Below, piece after piece: positions 30,246-52,491 of a DNA stretch of 64,000 nt. The DNA is from Candidatus Bathyarchaeota archaeon (GTDB lineage: Archaea > Thermoproteota > Bathyarchaeia > Bathyarchaeales > Bathycorpusculaceae): assembly GCA_963782525.1 (NCBI GenBank), contig CAWAKC010000003.1:160001-224000 (forward strand), written 5' to 3'. Numbering within the stretch: the stretch's first letter is position 1; the number at the start of each line of letters is the position of its first letter. The notes beneath the pieces were generated by a model. That model was not told where the DNA came from. It saw only the letters and a list, made by a program, of their open reading frames with translations, and made no database searches. The translations under genes were made by a program, and so were the position numbers.

Positions 30246-30288
30246 TGGTGCCGAGGGCTAGCTTGACACCGTCGTTTAAACCGTCGTT
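30246..30288 (+). repeat. 43-bp att-like repeat, copy 1
   Basis: Identical to 41313..41355; first 13 bp equal the tRNA-Phe 3' end at 52415..52427. Confidence 0.95.
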
Positions 30289-30630
30289 TTCAACCTTCAA
30301 TTTCCTAAAATGCCATTCCAAAGTAAGTCAGAAGGGGGATTCTATCACCAATTTACCAGTAAAAAGATGCTAAGGATGGGACAAACAGGATTACACTAAA
30401 CGGTGCAAGTCCCTACGCTTAATTTGAAAACTTCCTTTAATGTCTCCAGCTTTCCGTCTGCAAGCGCTTCAGCAAACCCCTAGGCGATGTTTGCTTCAGT
30501 GAAAAACATAAAACTGTCTATTGGCGTAACATATAGTGATCTACAGTTAACGGTAAGGATGTTACTAATATCAAGAAAAGGCATAAAAAAAATTGAAAGA
30601 TATTCTAAACCAGAGTTCCTTATACCACGC

Positions 30631-30927
30631 TTAAGTTGGTCTTAAGTAGAGGGATAATTGATCTTTTGTTACTTTAAGGTTTATTCCGTGTTCGGTGTAG
30701 TCTATAGCGCCTTTTTCTAATGCGGAAATTGCTAATGTGTTTCTGGGAAGGTCAAACAACGCGGGTTTTACGCCATGGATTTGTTCGCTAGCTTCTTTGG
30801 TTAATTCGATTTCAAGGTGGGTTATTTTCCACTCTTCAGGATCTATAACAGCGTCTTTTACTTTGCCTACGACAAAACCGTTTGCGCCAGTCACCATTTG
30901 GTTAACTAATTGATTAAATTTCATCAA
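30631..30927 (-). CDS. PRC-barrel domain protein
   Basis: VTGANGFVVGKVKDAVIDPEEWKITHL. Confidence 0.8.
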   Translation of the reverse strand: MMKFNQLVNQMVTGANGFVVGKVKDAVIDPEEWKITHLEIELTKEASEQIHGVKPALFDLPRNTLAISALEKGAIDYTEHGINLKVTKDQLSLYLRPT

Positions 30928-31587
30928 AACCTACTCCAATTGTAATATCACTATTGTTTTCTTATAAAACATATCGGTTACAAAGCATACGCAACGACTA
31001 ACGACATAAAAAAAACTAAACAAGTTAGCAGGGCAGTTGGGGTTAAAGAGTATGCTTTCTTTTGAGGTTTGTTTCTTTTTTGTAAATACTATTTCGGTTT
31101 TTTGGAAGGCTCTTCTGTTTCTACTGGCAAAAATCGTTCTAATGATGTTTAAGATTCACCCTTCAAGTGAGTAGCGTATTCAGGTTTCTTTTTCTTAATT
31201 ATTCTGCCAACAAGAAAGGGAATTATCAATGATATTATTAAAGTCGCAAGTATGACTAAAGAAAAGCCAGATTCGTTCAATGAACGAGACTGTGTAAAAA
31301 GTCAGTTCGGATTTTGAAAATTGCTTCATTGTTGTTAAAAGCCGTTTTATCAGCCATTGCTTTTTGCGAGCAAATCAGCAATTTTTTGAAAAGCAATTGA
31401 GTTATCACACAGTCTCGAACCTTCACTAAAAGCGACAGATGCTATAACAATCAAAACGTCAGTTATGATACCAAATAATGCCATCAATTTTACAAATATT
31501 GCTGTCGAACAAATATTTCTTTCTGAGGTGCTTTTTTATCACCCGATTTTATAGGTTTAGCGCGCACTACGCGATGTAATCATAAAG

Positions 31588-31875
31588 TTTTTAGCCGTTC
31601 AAAAAAAAGACACAACAGTGCAGTTTTCAACTCTCTTGTACTTGCCACCAGGGCAAAAAAAGCGCGGCGTATCAGGGCACATTAACTATAGATAGCGAGT
31701 AGATGTTAAATGGTGAACCCTCGAAGCAAAGAAAAAAAGCAAAAACGCTACAGTAGGCGTGATGCAAATTTTACGAAAATAGCCCTATTCAGCTAGTTTG
31801 AGCAAAGGGACCGGGTGCGAGGATTGCCGTGTGTTCAGACTCAGTTTAAGCAAACAAATGGCAAATGGGAATAGA
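31588..31875 (+). pseudogene. Degenerate copy of an unknown gene (homolog at 52164..52345)
   Basis: QFSTLLYLPPGQKKRGV...CEDCRV..QFKQTNGKWE* shared with the inverted copy. Confidence 0.6.
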
Positions 31876-32000
31876 GCGCGCCTGACTCGAACAGAGAACC
31901 AACTCAAACGCTGGAAGAATAGACAAAGCAGGCTCACCAACTTATTTCAACATATAACAAAGGGACAAGGCAGCGCCCCTATTACCTTTTTATTGAGCGT

Positions 32001-50274: not shown

Positions 50275-50404
50275 GCCTCTTTCAACTCACTTTTTAAAAA
50301 AACGTATTAGTTACTATACTTATAAGGTTTAATTGAAAAAAGAAGCAGAAGCGAGCTAAACTTATCCACCCAACGCTTCAACACACTCTTGATGCATCTT
50401 CCTT

Positions 50405-51583
50405 CTATAGAGCCTTAAATGATTCAAACCATCTGTCGTATTGCGCCAGCATGTCAATGGATACACTGGGCTTTCTTTCTTCGAGTATCTGCCTAAAATC
50501 CTCCATCGTCAACGGCCGTGGCTTGGCCCTTCTGTCGCTTGCCTTACCTGAATCAAAGAATTCGCCGATGAGTTTCAGCTGTGCCGACTGGTTGAGATCT
50601 CTTATGTCGCTTCCTGAGAATCCCTCTGAGAGTCTCGCGAGCTCCCGCAGCTTAACATCTGGAGCAAGTTGAAGACTGGCAGTGTAGAGCTTGAACATCA
50701 TCAATCGTGTATGGCGCTCAGGCAGTGAGACCAGAATTCTTTTCTGAAATCTTCTTATGAAAGCCCAGTCCAAATCCCAAGGCTTGTTAGTCGCTCCAAT
50801 CACGTACACGTGAAGGTTCTTGCCTTTGTCTAAGATACCATCCATCTCTTTCAAAAACTGGTTGCGAACACGGATTTCGCCGCCTACCTCATTTGCGTGT
50901 TTTCCCATCAAAGAATCAAGCTCATCGACGAAGATTATTGCAGGCTTTCCTTCCAACGATGTTTTCCTTACTTGACCAAACAGGCGTGCGACATTCTGTT
51001 CACCTTCACCCATCCATTTTGACATTATCGAAGCCGCGTCAATTGAGACGAAAGTAGCATCTATTTCCGTAGCGACGGCTGCTGCAAGCAATGTTTTCCC
51101 GCAACCTGGCGGTCCGAAGAACAATATTCCCCGTGGCCATCCTAATGGAAACAGGTCGGGTCTCTGAACAGGATAGAGTATTGCCTCCTTCACCGCCTTC
51201 TTTGCGGGGGCCAGTCCAACGACTTCCTCCCATTTCACGTTGAGCTTCTCTGTACCTATCAGTTCTTCGTAACTGGATTTGCCGCCTTCACTCTTTTTGG
51301 TTTCACCCTCACGCCCGCTATATCTAACTTCTGCGTGAGGTTGTTCGCGCGGCACACCTAGGGCGCCTTGAATCGCCTTTATGCGTTCTTGGTAGGCGAT
51401 CGCTTTTTGCACGTAGACTTTGTTCAAGTCGTATTCAGGATAGAGTTTAACAAGTTGCAGTAGGCTTTCTATGGATTTCTGGTACATGATTATTGCCATG
51501 CCCCTTGAGCCTTGCTTGTCCAAGCGCACTGCTTCCGACGCGTAGTTGGTTGCATTCTTCTCAAGCTCTTGGGAAGCACTCAT
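50405..51583 (-). CDS. cdvC: Vps4/CdvC AAA ATPase with MIT domain
   Basis: N-terminal MIT helices; [38 protein letters not shown]. Confidence 0.93.
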   Translation of the reverse strand: MSASQELEKNATNYASEAVRLDKQGSRGMAIIMYQKSIESLLQLVKLYPEYDLNKVYVQKAIAYQERIKAIQGALGVPREQPHAEVRYSGREGETKKSEGGKSSYEELIGTEKLNVKWEEVVGLAPAKKAVKEAILYPVQRPDLFPLGWPRGILFFGPPGCGKTLLAAAVATEIDATFVSIDAASIMSKWMGEGEQNVARLFGQVRKTSLEGKPAIIFVDELDSLMGKHANEVGGEIRVRNQFLKEMDGILDKGKNLHVYVIGATNKPWDLDWAFIRRFQKRILVSLPERHTRLMMFKLYTASLQLAPDVKLRELARLSEGFSGSDIRDLNQSAQLKLIGEFFDSGKASDRRAKPRPLTMEDFRQILEERKPSVSIDMLAQYDRWFESFKAL

Positions 51584-52163
51584 AACCTCTTTTCTCCAGT
51601 CTGCAATTCAACTTTTATTTTATCTTTCGACCCTAAACTTTCAAGGCGCACACGCGCTAAGCTGAAAAGTCTACGTTTACTCACAAAGAACTCGCCAATT
51701 ATCTAATAAGCACAATCAACATTTCAGTTTTTCCTAAGCAACAAAGAATCATCACAAGCATTCCAAGTAATCCAGATGGTTTTTTTCTGATAAGGGCAAG
51801 TTACCTAGACGACTCGTTATGCTAATCATTGAACAGTTGGTGAATGGAGGAAAATATTGCGCTTGTAGCACATTACAACAAGAAAAAAGATTTGCTTACT
51901 CTGATTATTGTGGCAGTTCTTGGTTTGGCAAAGGTTTCTTCTTTGTCAGGTCCTGTTGTGCCTTAGTTAAGTCTTTGAAGCCGTAGGTTCCAACTGGCGA
52001 CCAACCTGCTTCCGGCATAACCCCTGGCACTAACATGATTGTGTTTGTTTGCGATTGCTGACTTAACACGCAGAGCAAAAAACCAAAAACGTACCAAGAG
52101 GCAGGAGTATGAGTTGAAGTATATTGCCTACGCTTTTTGAAATCGCAAGGCAACTCGTAGATT

Positions 52164-52345
52164 CTATTCCCATTTGCCGTTTGTTTGCTTAAACTGCATC
52201 TGAACCACACGGCAATCCTCACACCAAATCCGCTACATCTTCAAAACAGATTCGCCCTGGTACGCCGCGCTTTTTTTGCCCTGGTGGCAAGTACAAGGGA
52301 GTTGAAAACTGTGTGTTTGATCCTTTAATTTGAACGGTTAAAAGC
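52164..52345 (-). pseudogene. Degenerate copy of an unknown gene next to tRNA-Phe (homolog at 31588..31875)
   Basis: QFSTPLYLPPGQKKRGV...CEDCRVVQMQFKQTNGKWE*. Confidence 0.6.
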
Positions 52346-52414
52346 GAGCGCTAAGCGCACATAATATCGTAATTTATGCCCAATATTGCAAAATAACCTC
52401 AAATTAAGGTTATT

Positions 52415-52491
52415 TGGTGCCGAGGGCAGGGTTTGAACATGCGACGACTCGGTCTTCAGCCGAGCGCTCTCCCAGGCTGAGCTACCTCGGC
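52415..52491 (-). tRNA. tRNA-Phe(GAA), CCA encoded
   Basis: Cloverleaf GCCGAGG/CCUCGGC, anticodon stem CUCGG/CCGAG with GAA; one T-stem mismatch. Confidence 0.95.

Follow-up and report, generated by a model that had tools for sequence, protein, structure and literature searches.

Two stacked units with shared short ends and no recombinase gene at tRNA-Phe of a Bathyarchaeia genome: a probable accretion of non-autonomous cassettes

Stacking of mobile elements at tRNA genes has been described in several systems. Cis-mobilizable elements (CIMEs) in Firmicutes keep both attachment (att) sites, lack integration genes and accrete in tandem, according to the part of PMC5704250 that treats them. The tycheposon islands of Prochlorococcus consist of stacked elements with partial tRNAs between them and with remnants, as summarized in a portion of bioRxiv 10.1101/2020.12.28.424599. 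Integrating elements of archaea and bacteria are also known to use one tRNA site repeatedly, in tandem (PMC6563490, relevant part). The locus described here is an island at a tRNA-Phe gene of Candidatus Bathyarchaeota archaeon (host genome G000, assembly GCA_963782525.1). It lies in a window of 64,000 nucleotides, the whole stretch of DNA that was analysed, which corresponds to positions 160,001 to 224,000 of contig CAWAKC010000003.1. The island is composed of two units, A and B. It is probable that both are non-autonomous, att-flanked cassettes of a family found in Bathyarchaeia, and that they accreted at tRNA-Phe with a zinc-ribbon XerA-like integrase supplied by another element.

The 13-mer TGGTGCCGAGGGC, here called the core, occurs three times on the + strand of the window, at 30246, 41313 and 52415 (0.04 copies expected; none of 100 shuffled sequences gave three). 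The third copy belongs to tRNA-Phe(GAA), a gene of the - strand, and corresponds in reverse complement to its 3' end with the CCA. The first two copies are directly followed, at 30259 and 41326, by the same 30-mer, TAGCTTGACACCGTCGTTTAAACCGTCGTT, with 0 mismatches and an expected count of 0. No other copy of the 30-mer is present in G000 (2.87 Mb, 12 contigs) at up to 3 mismatches. In this 30-mer, hereafter the arm, ACCGTCGTT forms two 9-nt direct repeats, 12 bp apart, flanking the palindrome TTTAAA. Inside the island, there is no extra core at up to 2 mismatches and no extra arm at up to 8 mismatches; the sole 2-mismatch core word elsewhere in the window is at 4175 on the - strand. An inverted repeat, AATAACCT/AGGTTATT, located at 52392-52399 and 52407-52414, abuts the CCA end of tRNA-Phe. 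An Rfam scan of 28000-56500 at E up to 1 detected two tRNAs and nothing else. The first-pass annotation of this DNA had reported that the 13-nt tRNA end recurs with the same 30 bp behind it, and that an 8-bp inverted repeat touches the CCA end. The copies are exact, and the inverted repeat is where it had been described. The features that define the island are as follows.

30246-30258, no strand assigned: core copy 1, a 13-nt repeat of the tRNA-Phe 3' end and the outer boundary of the island, with native chromosome to its left
30259-41312, no strand assigned: unit B, 11.05 kb, between core copies 1 and 2
30259-30288, + strand: distal arm ('P arm') of unit B, 30 bp, TAGCTTGAC followed by ACCGTCGTT-TAA-ACCGTCGTT
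41091-41312, + strand: tRNA-proximal arm of unit B (P'_B), about 160-220 bp, with copies beside other cores
41313-41325, no strand assigned: core copy 2, the junction of unit B and unit A
41326-52414, no strand assigned: unit A, 11.09 kb, between core copies 2 and 3
41326-41403, + strand: P arm of unit A ('type I' module), the 30-mer and 48 more conserved nt, which continues past an insertion sequence (IS) at 43035-43151
52354-52414, + strand: tRNA-proximal arm of unit A (P'_A), 61 bp, which holds the inverted repeat
52415-52491, - strand: intact tRNA-Phe(GAA), Rfam tRNA at 56 bits, whose last 13 nt are core copy 3

An unoccupied site was found in G225, the closest relative found and a member of the same genus. 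The left flank of the island (window 24000-30244) is 88% identical in G225 over 6245 nt. The similarity stops 1 nt before tRNA-Phe, where the flank meets TGGTGCCGAGGGCAGGGTTTGAAC (G225:C13, 26225/26227). Since the flank abuts tRNA-Phe in G225, the DNA to the left of 30246 represents the native downstream flank of the tRNA. The sequence 'aataacct...' was considered as the native flank and was rejected, because G225 places the native flank left of 30246 and 'aataacct...' in the insert. The nitroreductase gene of the left flank is less than 300 bp from tRNA-Phe in G208, G213, G217, G228 and G235. The segment 30259-52414 (22.2 kb) is a precise insertion at the 13-mer. The earlier proposal of an insertion at the tRNA-Phe 3' end, split by direct repeats of the tRNA end, is borne out by the unoccupied site. 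Two circumstances would have spoken against it, the presence of the 22 kb as stable syntenic core in relatives and an assembly artefact; the empty site and the recurrence of the architecture across dozens of assemblies contradict them. The locus thus has the marks of a tRNA island: insertion at the 3' end of a tRNA, a direct repeat at the far boundary, an intact tRNA gene and an exact junction at an unoccupied site in a relative. An element-encoded integrase beside the att site is absent from the island and present in related arrays.

The arms are widespread among relatives. An exact 21-mer of the arm was found at 16 loci among 185,579 species genomes, all titled as metagenome-assembled genomes of Bathyarchaeia or Bathyarchaeota, and at no locus in viral contigs. 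In a sample of 120 genomes of the genus, a 27-mer of the arm, searched at up to 3 mismatches, is present in 38 genomes with 1-6 copies each. The copies are often arranged in same-strand arrays, a few kb apart. The arm is also present in G166, which belongs to another genus of the same family. The arm census covers 35 fetched stretches (fetched stretches carry L numbers below) with 49 arm copies, and 48 of the 49 are directly preceded by a 13-mer resembling a tRNA 3' end. The commonest core types are Phe, Leu(UAG) and Leu(CAA); the 3' end of tRNA-Leu(UAG) is also that of tRNA-Tyr in G000. The core word is that of the local tRNA in G000 (Phe) and in G166, where an intron-bearing tRNA-Leu(CAA) closes a two-unit array. 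The matching tRNA is included in the stretch for 12 arrays, and in all 12 the arm is directed towards this gene, which is on the other strand, as in the window. Unit sizes range from 0.86 kb to about 16 kb. The smallest units, 858 bp (L044, 14638-15495) and 1148 bp (L034, between 18561 and 17426), contain solely an open reading frame (ORF) similar to ribbon-helix-helix antitoxins and an ORF for a ParE-family toxin.

Each end of the units has its own conserved module. The distal arm module is 80-97% identical over about 78 nt in more than 20 copies, and reaches about 90 nt in the commonest type. The ACCGTCGTT repeats are the most conserved part of the arm, among copies that had been selected with that motif. 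P'_A has 15 copies in 11 other loci, with 82-98% identity, and the homology ends abruptly at 52353/52354. P'_B has copies of 79-92% identity beside cores in 6 other loci; it adjoins tRNA-Phe in two genomes, G294 and G229, and a Leu-type core in G202. Proximal arms are seen in three settings: beside a true tRNA, fused through the 13-mer to the distal arm of the next unit, and beside different cores. Arm identity is 92-98% between genomes that have about 70% identity in the flanking genes. Between G000 and G205, for example, flanking genes are 71% identical, arms 92-97% and the CDC48 gene of unit A 94%. The combination of conserved ends and unrelated cargo, first noticed in the window, extends to many related genomes in which the arms recur.

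Additional observations were made on arms and cores. A degenerate third arm copy of G000 is present on C2 at about 29562 (- strand), beside a Leu(CAA)-type core word, GTGCTGCGGGC. In L028, L043, L044 and L051, a 25-nt stretch located about 20-50 nt past the 30-nt arm corresponds to the reverse complement of a tRNA T-arm and acceptor end. It is closest to tRNA-Ala(CGC) of G000 (23 of 26). The commoner module type, at 41378-41403 in the window, resembles a decayed form of this stretch. The arm might thus derive from sequence that flanked a different tRNA site. In some loci of several genomes (L033 at 9499-9573, L013, L037 and L046), the tRNA-Phe or tRNA-Leu gene and its repeats have no encoded CCA (AAGTGC... 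and not TGGTGC...). These loci are associated with other types of proximal arms, some of them A/G-rich ('agcaagaaaacagcaa...aagcaaaaa').

No recombinase gene was recognized in the island. No integrase was detected with Pfam among 23 ORFs in or beside the region (the larger ones among those with 70 aa or more) or among 7 more ORFs of the island and its flanks. PF00589 has 10 matches in G000, none of them at C3:190246-212427, which is the island. A tblastn search of the island with three integrases of the family described below, at E up to 50, returned only noise. These searches agree with the first-pass annotation that the units encode no recombinase.

Arrays in relatives do contain integrases. 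These are tyrosine recombinases (PF00589) of about 390-460 aa with an N-terminal zinc ribbon, and their genes adjoin the core and read towards it. The genes are whole and end 40-170 nt before the core. In G264:C7, about 60 nt separate the end of the gene from a core-plus-arm junction in a tRNA-Leu(UAG) array. The integrase of G263:C22 adjoins tRNA-Leu(UAG), and those of G133 and G230 adjoin tRNA-Phe. G224 has a frameshifted integrase (pseudogene) beside tRNA-Phe; the 3.8-kb unit to which it belongs terminates with the arm. In integrase-bearing units, the arm that separates the integrase gene from the core also has a CGTCGC-like word, as read by eye. Among named models, the recombinase comes closest to archaeal XerA (94 bits, with a cut-off of 220) and the XerA-like structure PDB 4a8e (E 6.6e-12). 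The XerA and integron-integrase families are the closest models, all with scores far below their cut-offs. The integrase family is present in 106 of the 120 genomes of the genus, and its co-occurrence with the arm is therefore uninformative. G000 itself has a member on C6, about 75 nt from tRNA-Pro(GGG), which shares 41-43% identity with the tRNA-Phe-adjacent enzymes and 51-52% with the Leu(UAG) enzymes; there is no direct repeat of the tRNA-Pro end near it. Another member, at C3:146428, is 31-36% identical to both groups. A search of the genome and its relatives for the 30-bp end and associated integrases had been suggested. The arm was found, in 38 of the 120 genomes, and a cognate integrase of the tRNA-Phe type was not found in G000. 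In G294 (L059, 9634-10788) and G299 (L051, 3329-3655), an integrase gene or fragment is located 5' of tRNA-Phe and reads towards the tRNA, which is the reverse of the usual placement.

Among the described systems, CIMEs are the most similar. As in CIMEs, the units have both att sites, lack integration and transfer genes, and are in tandem at a tRNA 3' end with target repeats between them; an integrase-bearing element is present in the same array in relatives. Cores and arms were found at the ends of each unit, and no recombinase or conjugation domain was found in the scanned ORFs. In contrast to CIMEs, the host is an archaeon, short standardized arms are present on both sides, the cargo varies down to a single toxin-antitoxin pair, and the same arms are used at three tRNA targets. 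Descent from a conjugative element is not evident, as no conjugation genes were seen. An origin by decay, as in CIMEs, has one point in its favour, the integrase pseudogene in an arm-bearing unit of G224, whereas the sharp modular arms and the mini-cassettes speak against simple decay.

The comparison with tycheposon islands, which the first-pass annotation had drawn, is fair as an analogy. In both, as far as the tycheposon preprint describes them in part, cargo elements are stacked at a tRNA with partial tRNA copies between them, older elements are pushed inward and degenerate remnants occur. Tycheposons, according to the same portion, carry a tyrosine recombinase and replication genes, both of which are missing from these units; the host phyla are not related, and neither are the sequences. 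The Pfam scan of the island ORFs revealed neither a tyrosine or large serine recombinase of their own nor a primase/helicase module. Archaeal tRNA-integrating elements share the tRNA 3' end as target, the direct repeat, the tyrosine recombinase and the tandem arrays. Those described in the relevant part of PMC6563490 encode an integrase, and that part describes no integrase-less cassettes with common arms.

Toxin-antitoxin cassettes occur in large integrons. The arrays resemble integrons in that each cassette has its own recombination site and the smallest are toxin-antitoxin pairs. They differ from integrons in having no array-resident intI, attI or Pc, and in a junction that is a tRNA-derived 13-mer and not a hairpin attC. 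The island has no integrase of its own, and its multigenic units use both strands. Tandem accretion at a tRNA site is what this case has in common with the described systems, and the archaeal host, the short standard ends, the mini-cassettes and the three tRNA cores set it apart. A limited literature search found no such cassettes for Bathyarchaeia; they may still be in print.

The proposed explanation is as follows. The island 30259-52414 would have been made by conservative site-specific recombination, for which the last 13 nt of tRNA-Phe served as the site. Three parts would make up a cassette: a conserved distal arm, in which two ACCGTCGTT repeats enclose TTTAAA, freely variable cargo and one of a few proximal arms. 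The proximal arm, the core and the distal arm together would form an attP-like junction, and a circle with this junction would recombine with the tRNA at the 13 nt that both have in common. A full 3' end, followed by the proximal arm, would stay with the tRNA, and the displaced 13 nt would move behind the distal arm. The middle junction at 41313 would be derived either from a second event or from the internal junction of one composite circle. The recombinase is most likely a zinc-ribbon XerA-like tyrosine integrase like those beside tRNA genes in related arrays. Because neither the island nor the assembled genome has a cognate copy, the integrase would be supplied by another element, and the cassettes would be moved in trans. 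That XerA-like integrases act on the cassette arms is plausible; the link between enzyme and arm would rest on shared sites, shared arrays and one composite unit (G224). The ACCGTCGTT repeats are candidate arm-type sites or sites for accessory proteins. On the tRNA strand, the 61-bp arm contains an 8-bp hairpin followed by a T-run, and this arm may serve as a replacement 3' flank or terminator for the tRNA gene. A Phe-type junction is found inside a tRNA-Leu array in G216, indicating that composite units can travel between tRNA sites.

Several observations weigh against this explanation. No integrase of the tRNA-Phe-adjacent clade is present in the assembled G000, whose two family members are 41-43% and 35% identical to that clade. 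Integrases at least 54% identical to the tRNA-Phe enzyme of G230 are found in about 14 genomes, and only G224 (the pseudogene) and possibly G249, among about 18 genomes with Phe-core arms, have such an integrase. The elements of G230 and G263, which bear an integrase and are intact, terminate in a tRNA repeat of 21-22 nt and lack the arm; thus the arm is not demonstrably a substrate of these two enzymes. No excision product specific to this organism was seen in four sequencing runs compared with 41000-52700. In one soil run, a single contig connects 52414 back to 41313 through 13 shared letters and so reads proximal arm A, core, distal arm. Because relatives (L010, L026, L028 and L034) have this junction in their chromosomes, the contig is no evidence for a circle of unit A. 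No sequencing run, as assembled contigs, contained more than 24% of the sampled words of 43100-52600. Finally, a block of unit A that contains CDC48 is found without arm, core or matching tRNA in the 20 kb fetched from each of 6 other genomes (G275, G229:C11, G281, G284, G236 and G279), rearranged in some of them. The cargo therefore spreads by other routes too.

One alternative is that the units are inert relics. Two once-autonomous elements at tRNA-Phe would have lost their integrase and replication genes, nothing would move them now, and their ends would be kept through recency or through overlap with useful signals such as the tRNA terminator and promoters. The missing cognate integrase in G000 and in most genomes with Phe-core arms would fit this alternative, as would the integrase pseudogene of G224 and the repeat and IS debris inside unit B. 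However, independent deletions would not leave 11 loci with the same 61-bp proximal arm and 6 loci with the same proximal arm of approximately 220 bp, sharply delimited and free of integrase remnants. They would not yield units of 0.86-1.15 kb that hold a toxin-antitoxin pair alone. The similarity of arms between genomes, far above that of flanking genes, and the use of the same arms with cores of three tRNAs are also against it. Inert relics are considered a possible but rather unlikely explanation.

The number of integration steps is a separate question. A single 22-kb composite circle with an internal junction might have been integrated once into tRNA-Phe. Junctions of proximal arm, core and distal arm inside the arrays of other genomes, such as that of G216, and the identity of the two 43-mers of the window are consistent with one step. 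No observation separates one step from two: among the loci examined, there is no relative with one unit, or with the same pair, at tRNA-Phe. A one-step origin is regarded as conceivable, with some doubt. The first-pass annotation had read the island as stepwise integrations in trans. Of this reading, the insertion at the tRNA, the recurrent ends and the absence of an own recombinase stand; the succession of steps is one of two possibilities, as the integration of one composite circle fits equally.

It is very improbable that the island arose without site-specific recombination, by IS-mediated or homologous rearrangement or by duplication of repeats flanking the tRNA, with the tRNA likeness coming from a family of pseudo-tRNA repeats. 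An IS1182-family element is located 52 bp from one arm and repeatedly targets the arm module, an inverted junction pair surrounds an IS in G205:C5, and the region is rich in repeats, all of which such an origin could explain. It could not easily explain a boundary that is exact to the base at the tRNA 3' end in comparison with the empty site, nor the agreement of the 13-mer with the local tRNA across several genomes and more than one kind of tRNA. The IS adjoins few of the 49 arm copies, its second copy in G000 is without the 43-mer, and only one arm of 49 is away from a tRNA-like word.

A transposon- or casposon-like element with a 13-nt target-site duplication, a split integrase of the type of Sulfolobus spindle-shaped virus (SSV), and an assembly artefact are together extremely improbable: casposons do target tRNA 3' ends and form tandems (PMC6563490, in part), but the unit ends are unrelated and without terminal inverted repeats, neither Cas1 casposase, PolB nor a non-IS transposase is among the scanned ORFs, no flanking integrase fragments were found by tblastn at E up to 50 (noise only) while the integrase of relatives is whole and ends before the core, and the architecture recurs in dozens of independent assemblies.

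If the cassettes were indeed moved in trans by integrases of other elements, as favored here, a broader picture can be drawn, though only tentatively. Soil Bathyarchaeia might possess an integron-like cassette system without a platform. In such a system, a portable junction of about 100-300 bp would allow cassettes of 0.9-16 kb to be captured, stacked and shuffled among tRNA genes by integrases from other elements. The distal arm would perhaps be an outward TATA-type promoter, and additional copies of central informational and division genes (TBP, CDC48, CdvC-like and DNA ligase) would be spread among species.

Bathyarchaeia are abundant, uncultured archaea of soil and sediment, and to our knowledge little is known about their gene exchange. 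A family of recombinase-less cassettes with standard ends would account for the movement of accessory genes between species whose neighbouring genes are about 70% identical. The moved genes include spare copies for transcription, proteostasis, division and ligation. The 13-nt core and the 30-nt arm with two 9-nt repeats also constitute a concrete recombination substrate for the study of archaeal tyrosine integrases, and possibly for genetic tools. The part of PMC10848311 that deals with Bathyarchaeia viruses describes proviruses with integrases, and not such cassettes.

The two units of the window have only short repeats in common, which agrees with the earlier statement that they share almost no genes. 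Unit B contains genes for a PRC-barrel ORF, an ATP-dependent DNA ligase (32001-33743, - strand), a histidine phosphatase, a 162-aa ORF, a CBS-domain protein, a winged helix-turn-helix protein, CorA and an NHL-repeat protein, and repeat fragments at 31277-31430, 31577-31904 and 38696-38872. Unit A contains the IS, small zinc-ribbon ORFs, CDC48 (46092-48260, - strand), TBP (49306-49866, - strand), a CdvC/Vps4-like AAA ATPase (50405-51583, - strand) and a 105-aa ORF. The genes for TBP, CDC48, the CdvC/Vps4-like ATPase and the ATP-dependent ligase mark the host as an archaeon. Most island genes are full-length by Pfam coverage; the exceptions are the IS transposase, split in two ORFs, and a few repeat fragments. 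Every tested cargo gene with known domains has a paralogue elsewhere in G000, with amino-acid identities of 42% for the ligase, 73% for CDC48, 73% and 64% for TBP, 75% for the CdvC-like protein and 54% for the CBS protein. Because the domain-bearing genes have second copies elsewhere in the genome, the island is considered accessory. The cargo had been described as decaying. This is not supported, because most genes (those for DNA ligase, CDC48, TBP and the CdvC-like protein) are intact extra paralogues.

Unit A is a mosaic, with an IS in the arm module and a separately spread CDC48 block. These two components are as follows.

41408-43030, + strand: IS1182-family IS, with the transposase in two ORFs, 41480-42454 and 42433-42942
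45364-51894, - strand: CDC48-TBP-CdvC-like block inside unit A, a horizontally spread segment

At least 18 other genomes of the genus have the block with 88-96% identity, compared with 66-69% nearly everywhere for the chromosomal CDC48 paralogue. The IS has the ends CAGACTGTGTG...CACAGTCTG and a target duplication, GAAA, at 41404-41407 and 43031-43034. Its second copy in G000 (C3:230941-232631) is 99% identical and is inserted in a copy of the module. In several genomes (L026, L032, L034 and L045), IS1182-family elements are inserted at one and the same position of the module, after CTTAACCCC. Judging from these insertion points, it is a target-specific IS. The IS transposase was rejected as the recombinase acting on the units, given that the element is bounded by inverted ends of its own and by a 4-bp duplication, that its 99% identical copy elsewhere lacks the 43-mer, and that few arm copies adjoin an IS. 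At G205:C5:143.5-145.7k (L026), an IS is surrounded by two full junctions (proximal arm A, core, distal arm), which are 2 kb apart and inverted relative to each other. By homology, this site corresponds to the left flank of the window. This structure suggests inversion or rearrangement between att sites.

Several repeats occur inside the units. The repeat of about 150 bp at 31277-31430 has at least 7 more copies, with 94-97% identity, on six contigs of G000, and resembles miniature inverted-repeat transposable elements. The multi-copy repeat at 52163-52345 is found inverted at 31577-31904, and also on C5, on C11 (two copies) and at C3:230.7k. It overlaps the start of the 105-aa ORF, and in other genomes it is located a few hundred bp inside the distal arm. 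The region of the PRC-barrel ORF, 30333-31012, has three paralogous copies on C5 and C10 with 82-85% DNA identity. A motif, CC(A/T)ATTTACCAGTAAA, which contains the near-palindrome TTTACnnGTAAA, is present at 30348-30363 and 38808-38823, within arm modules and elsewhere. In L060, the same motif flanks the CDC48 block on both sides.

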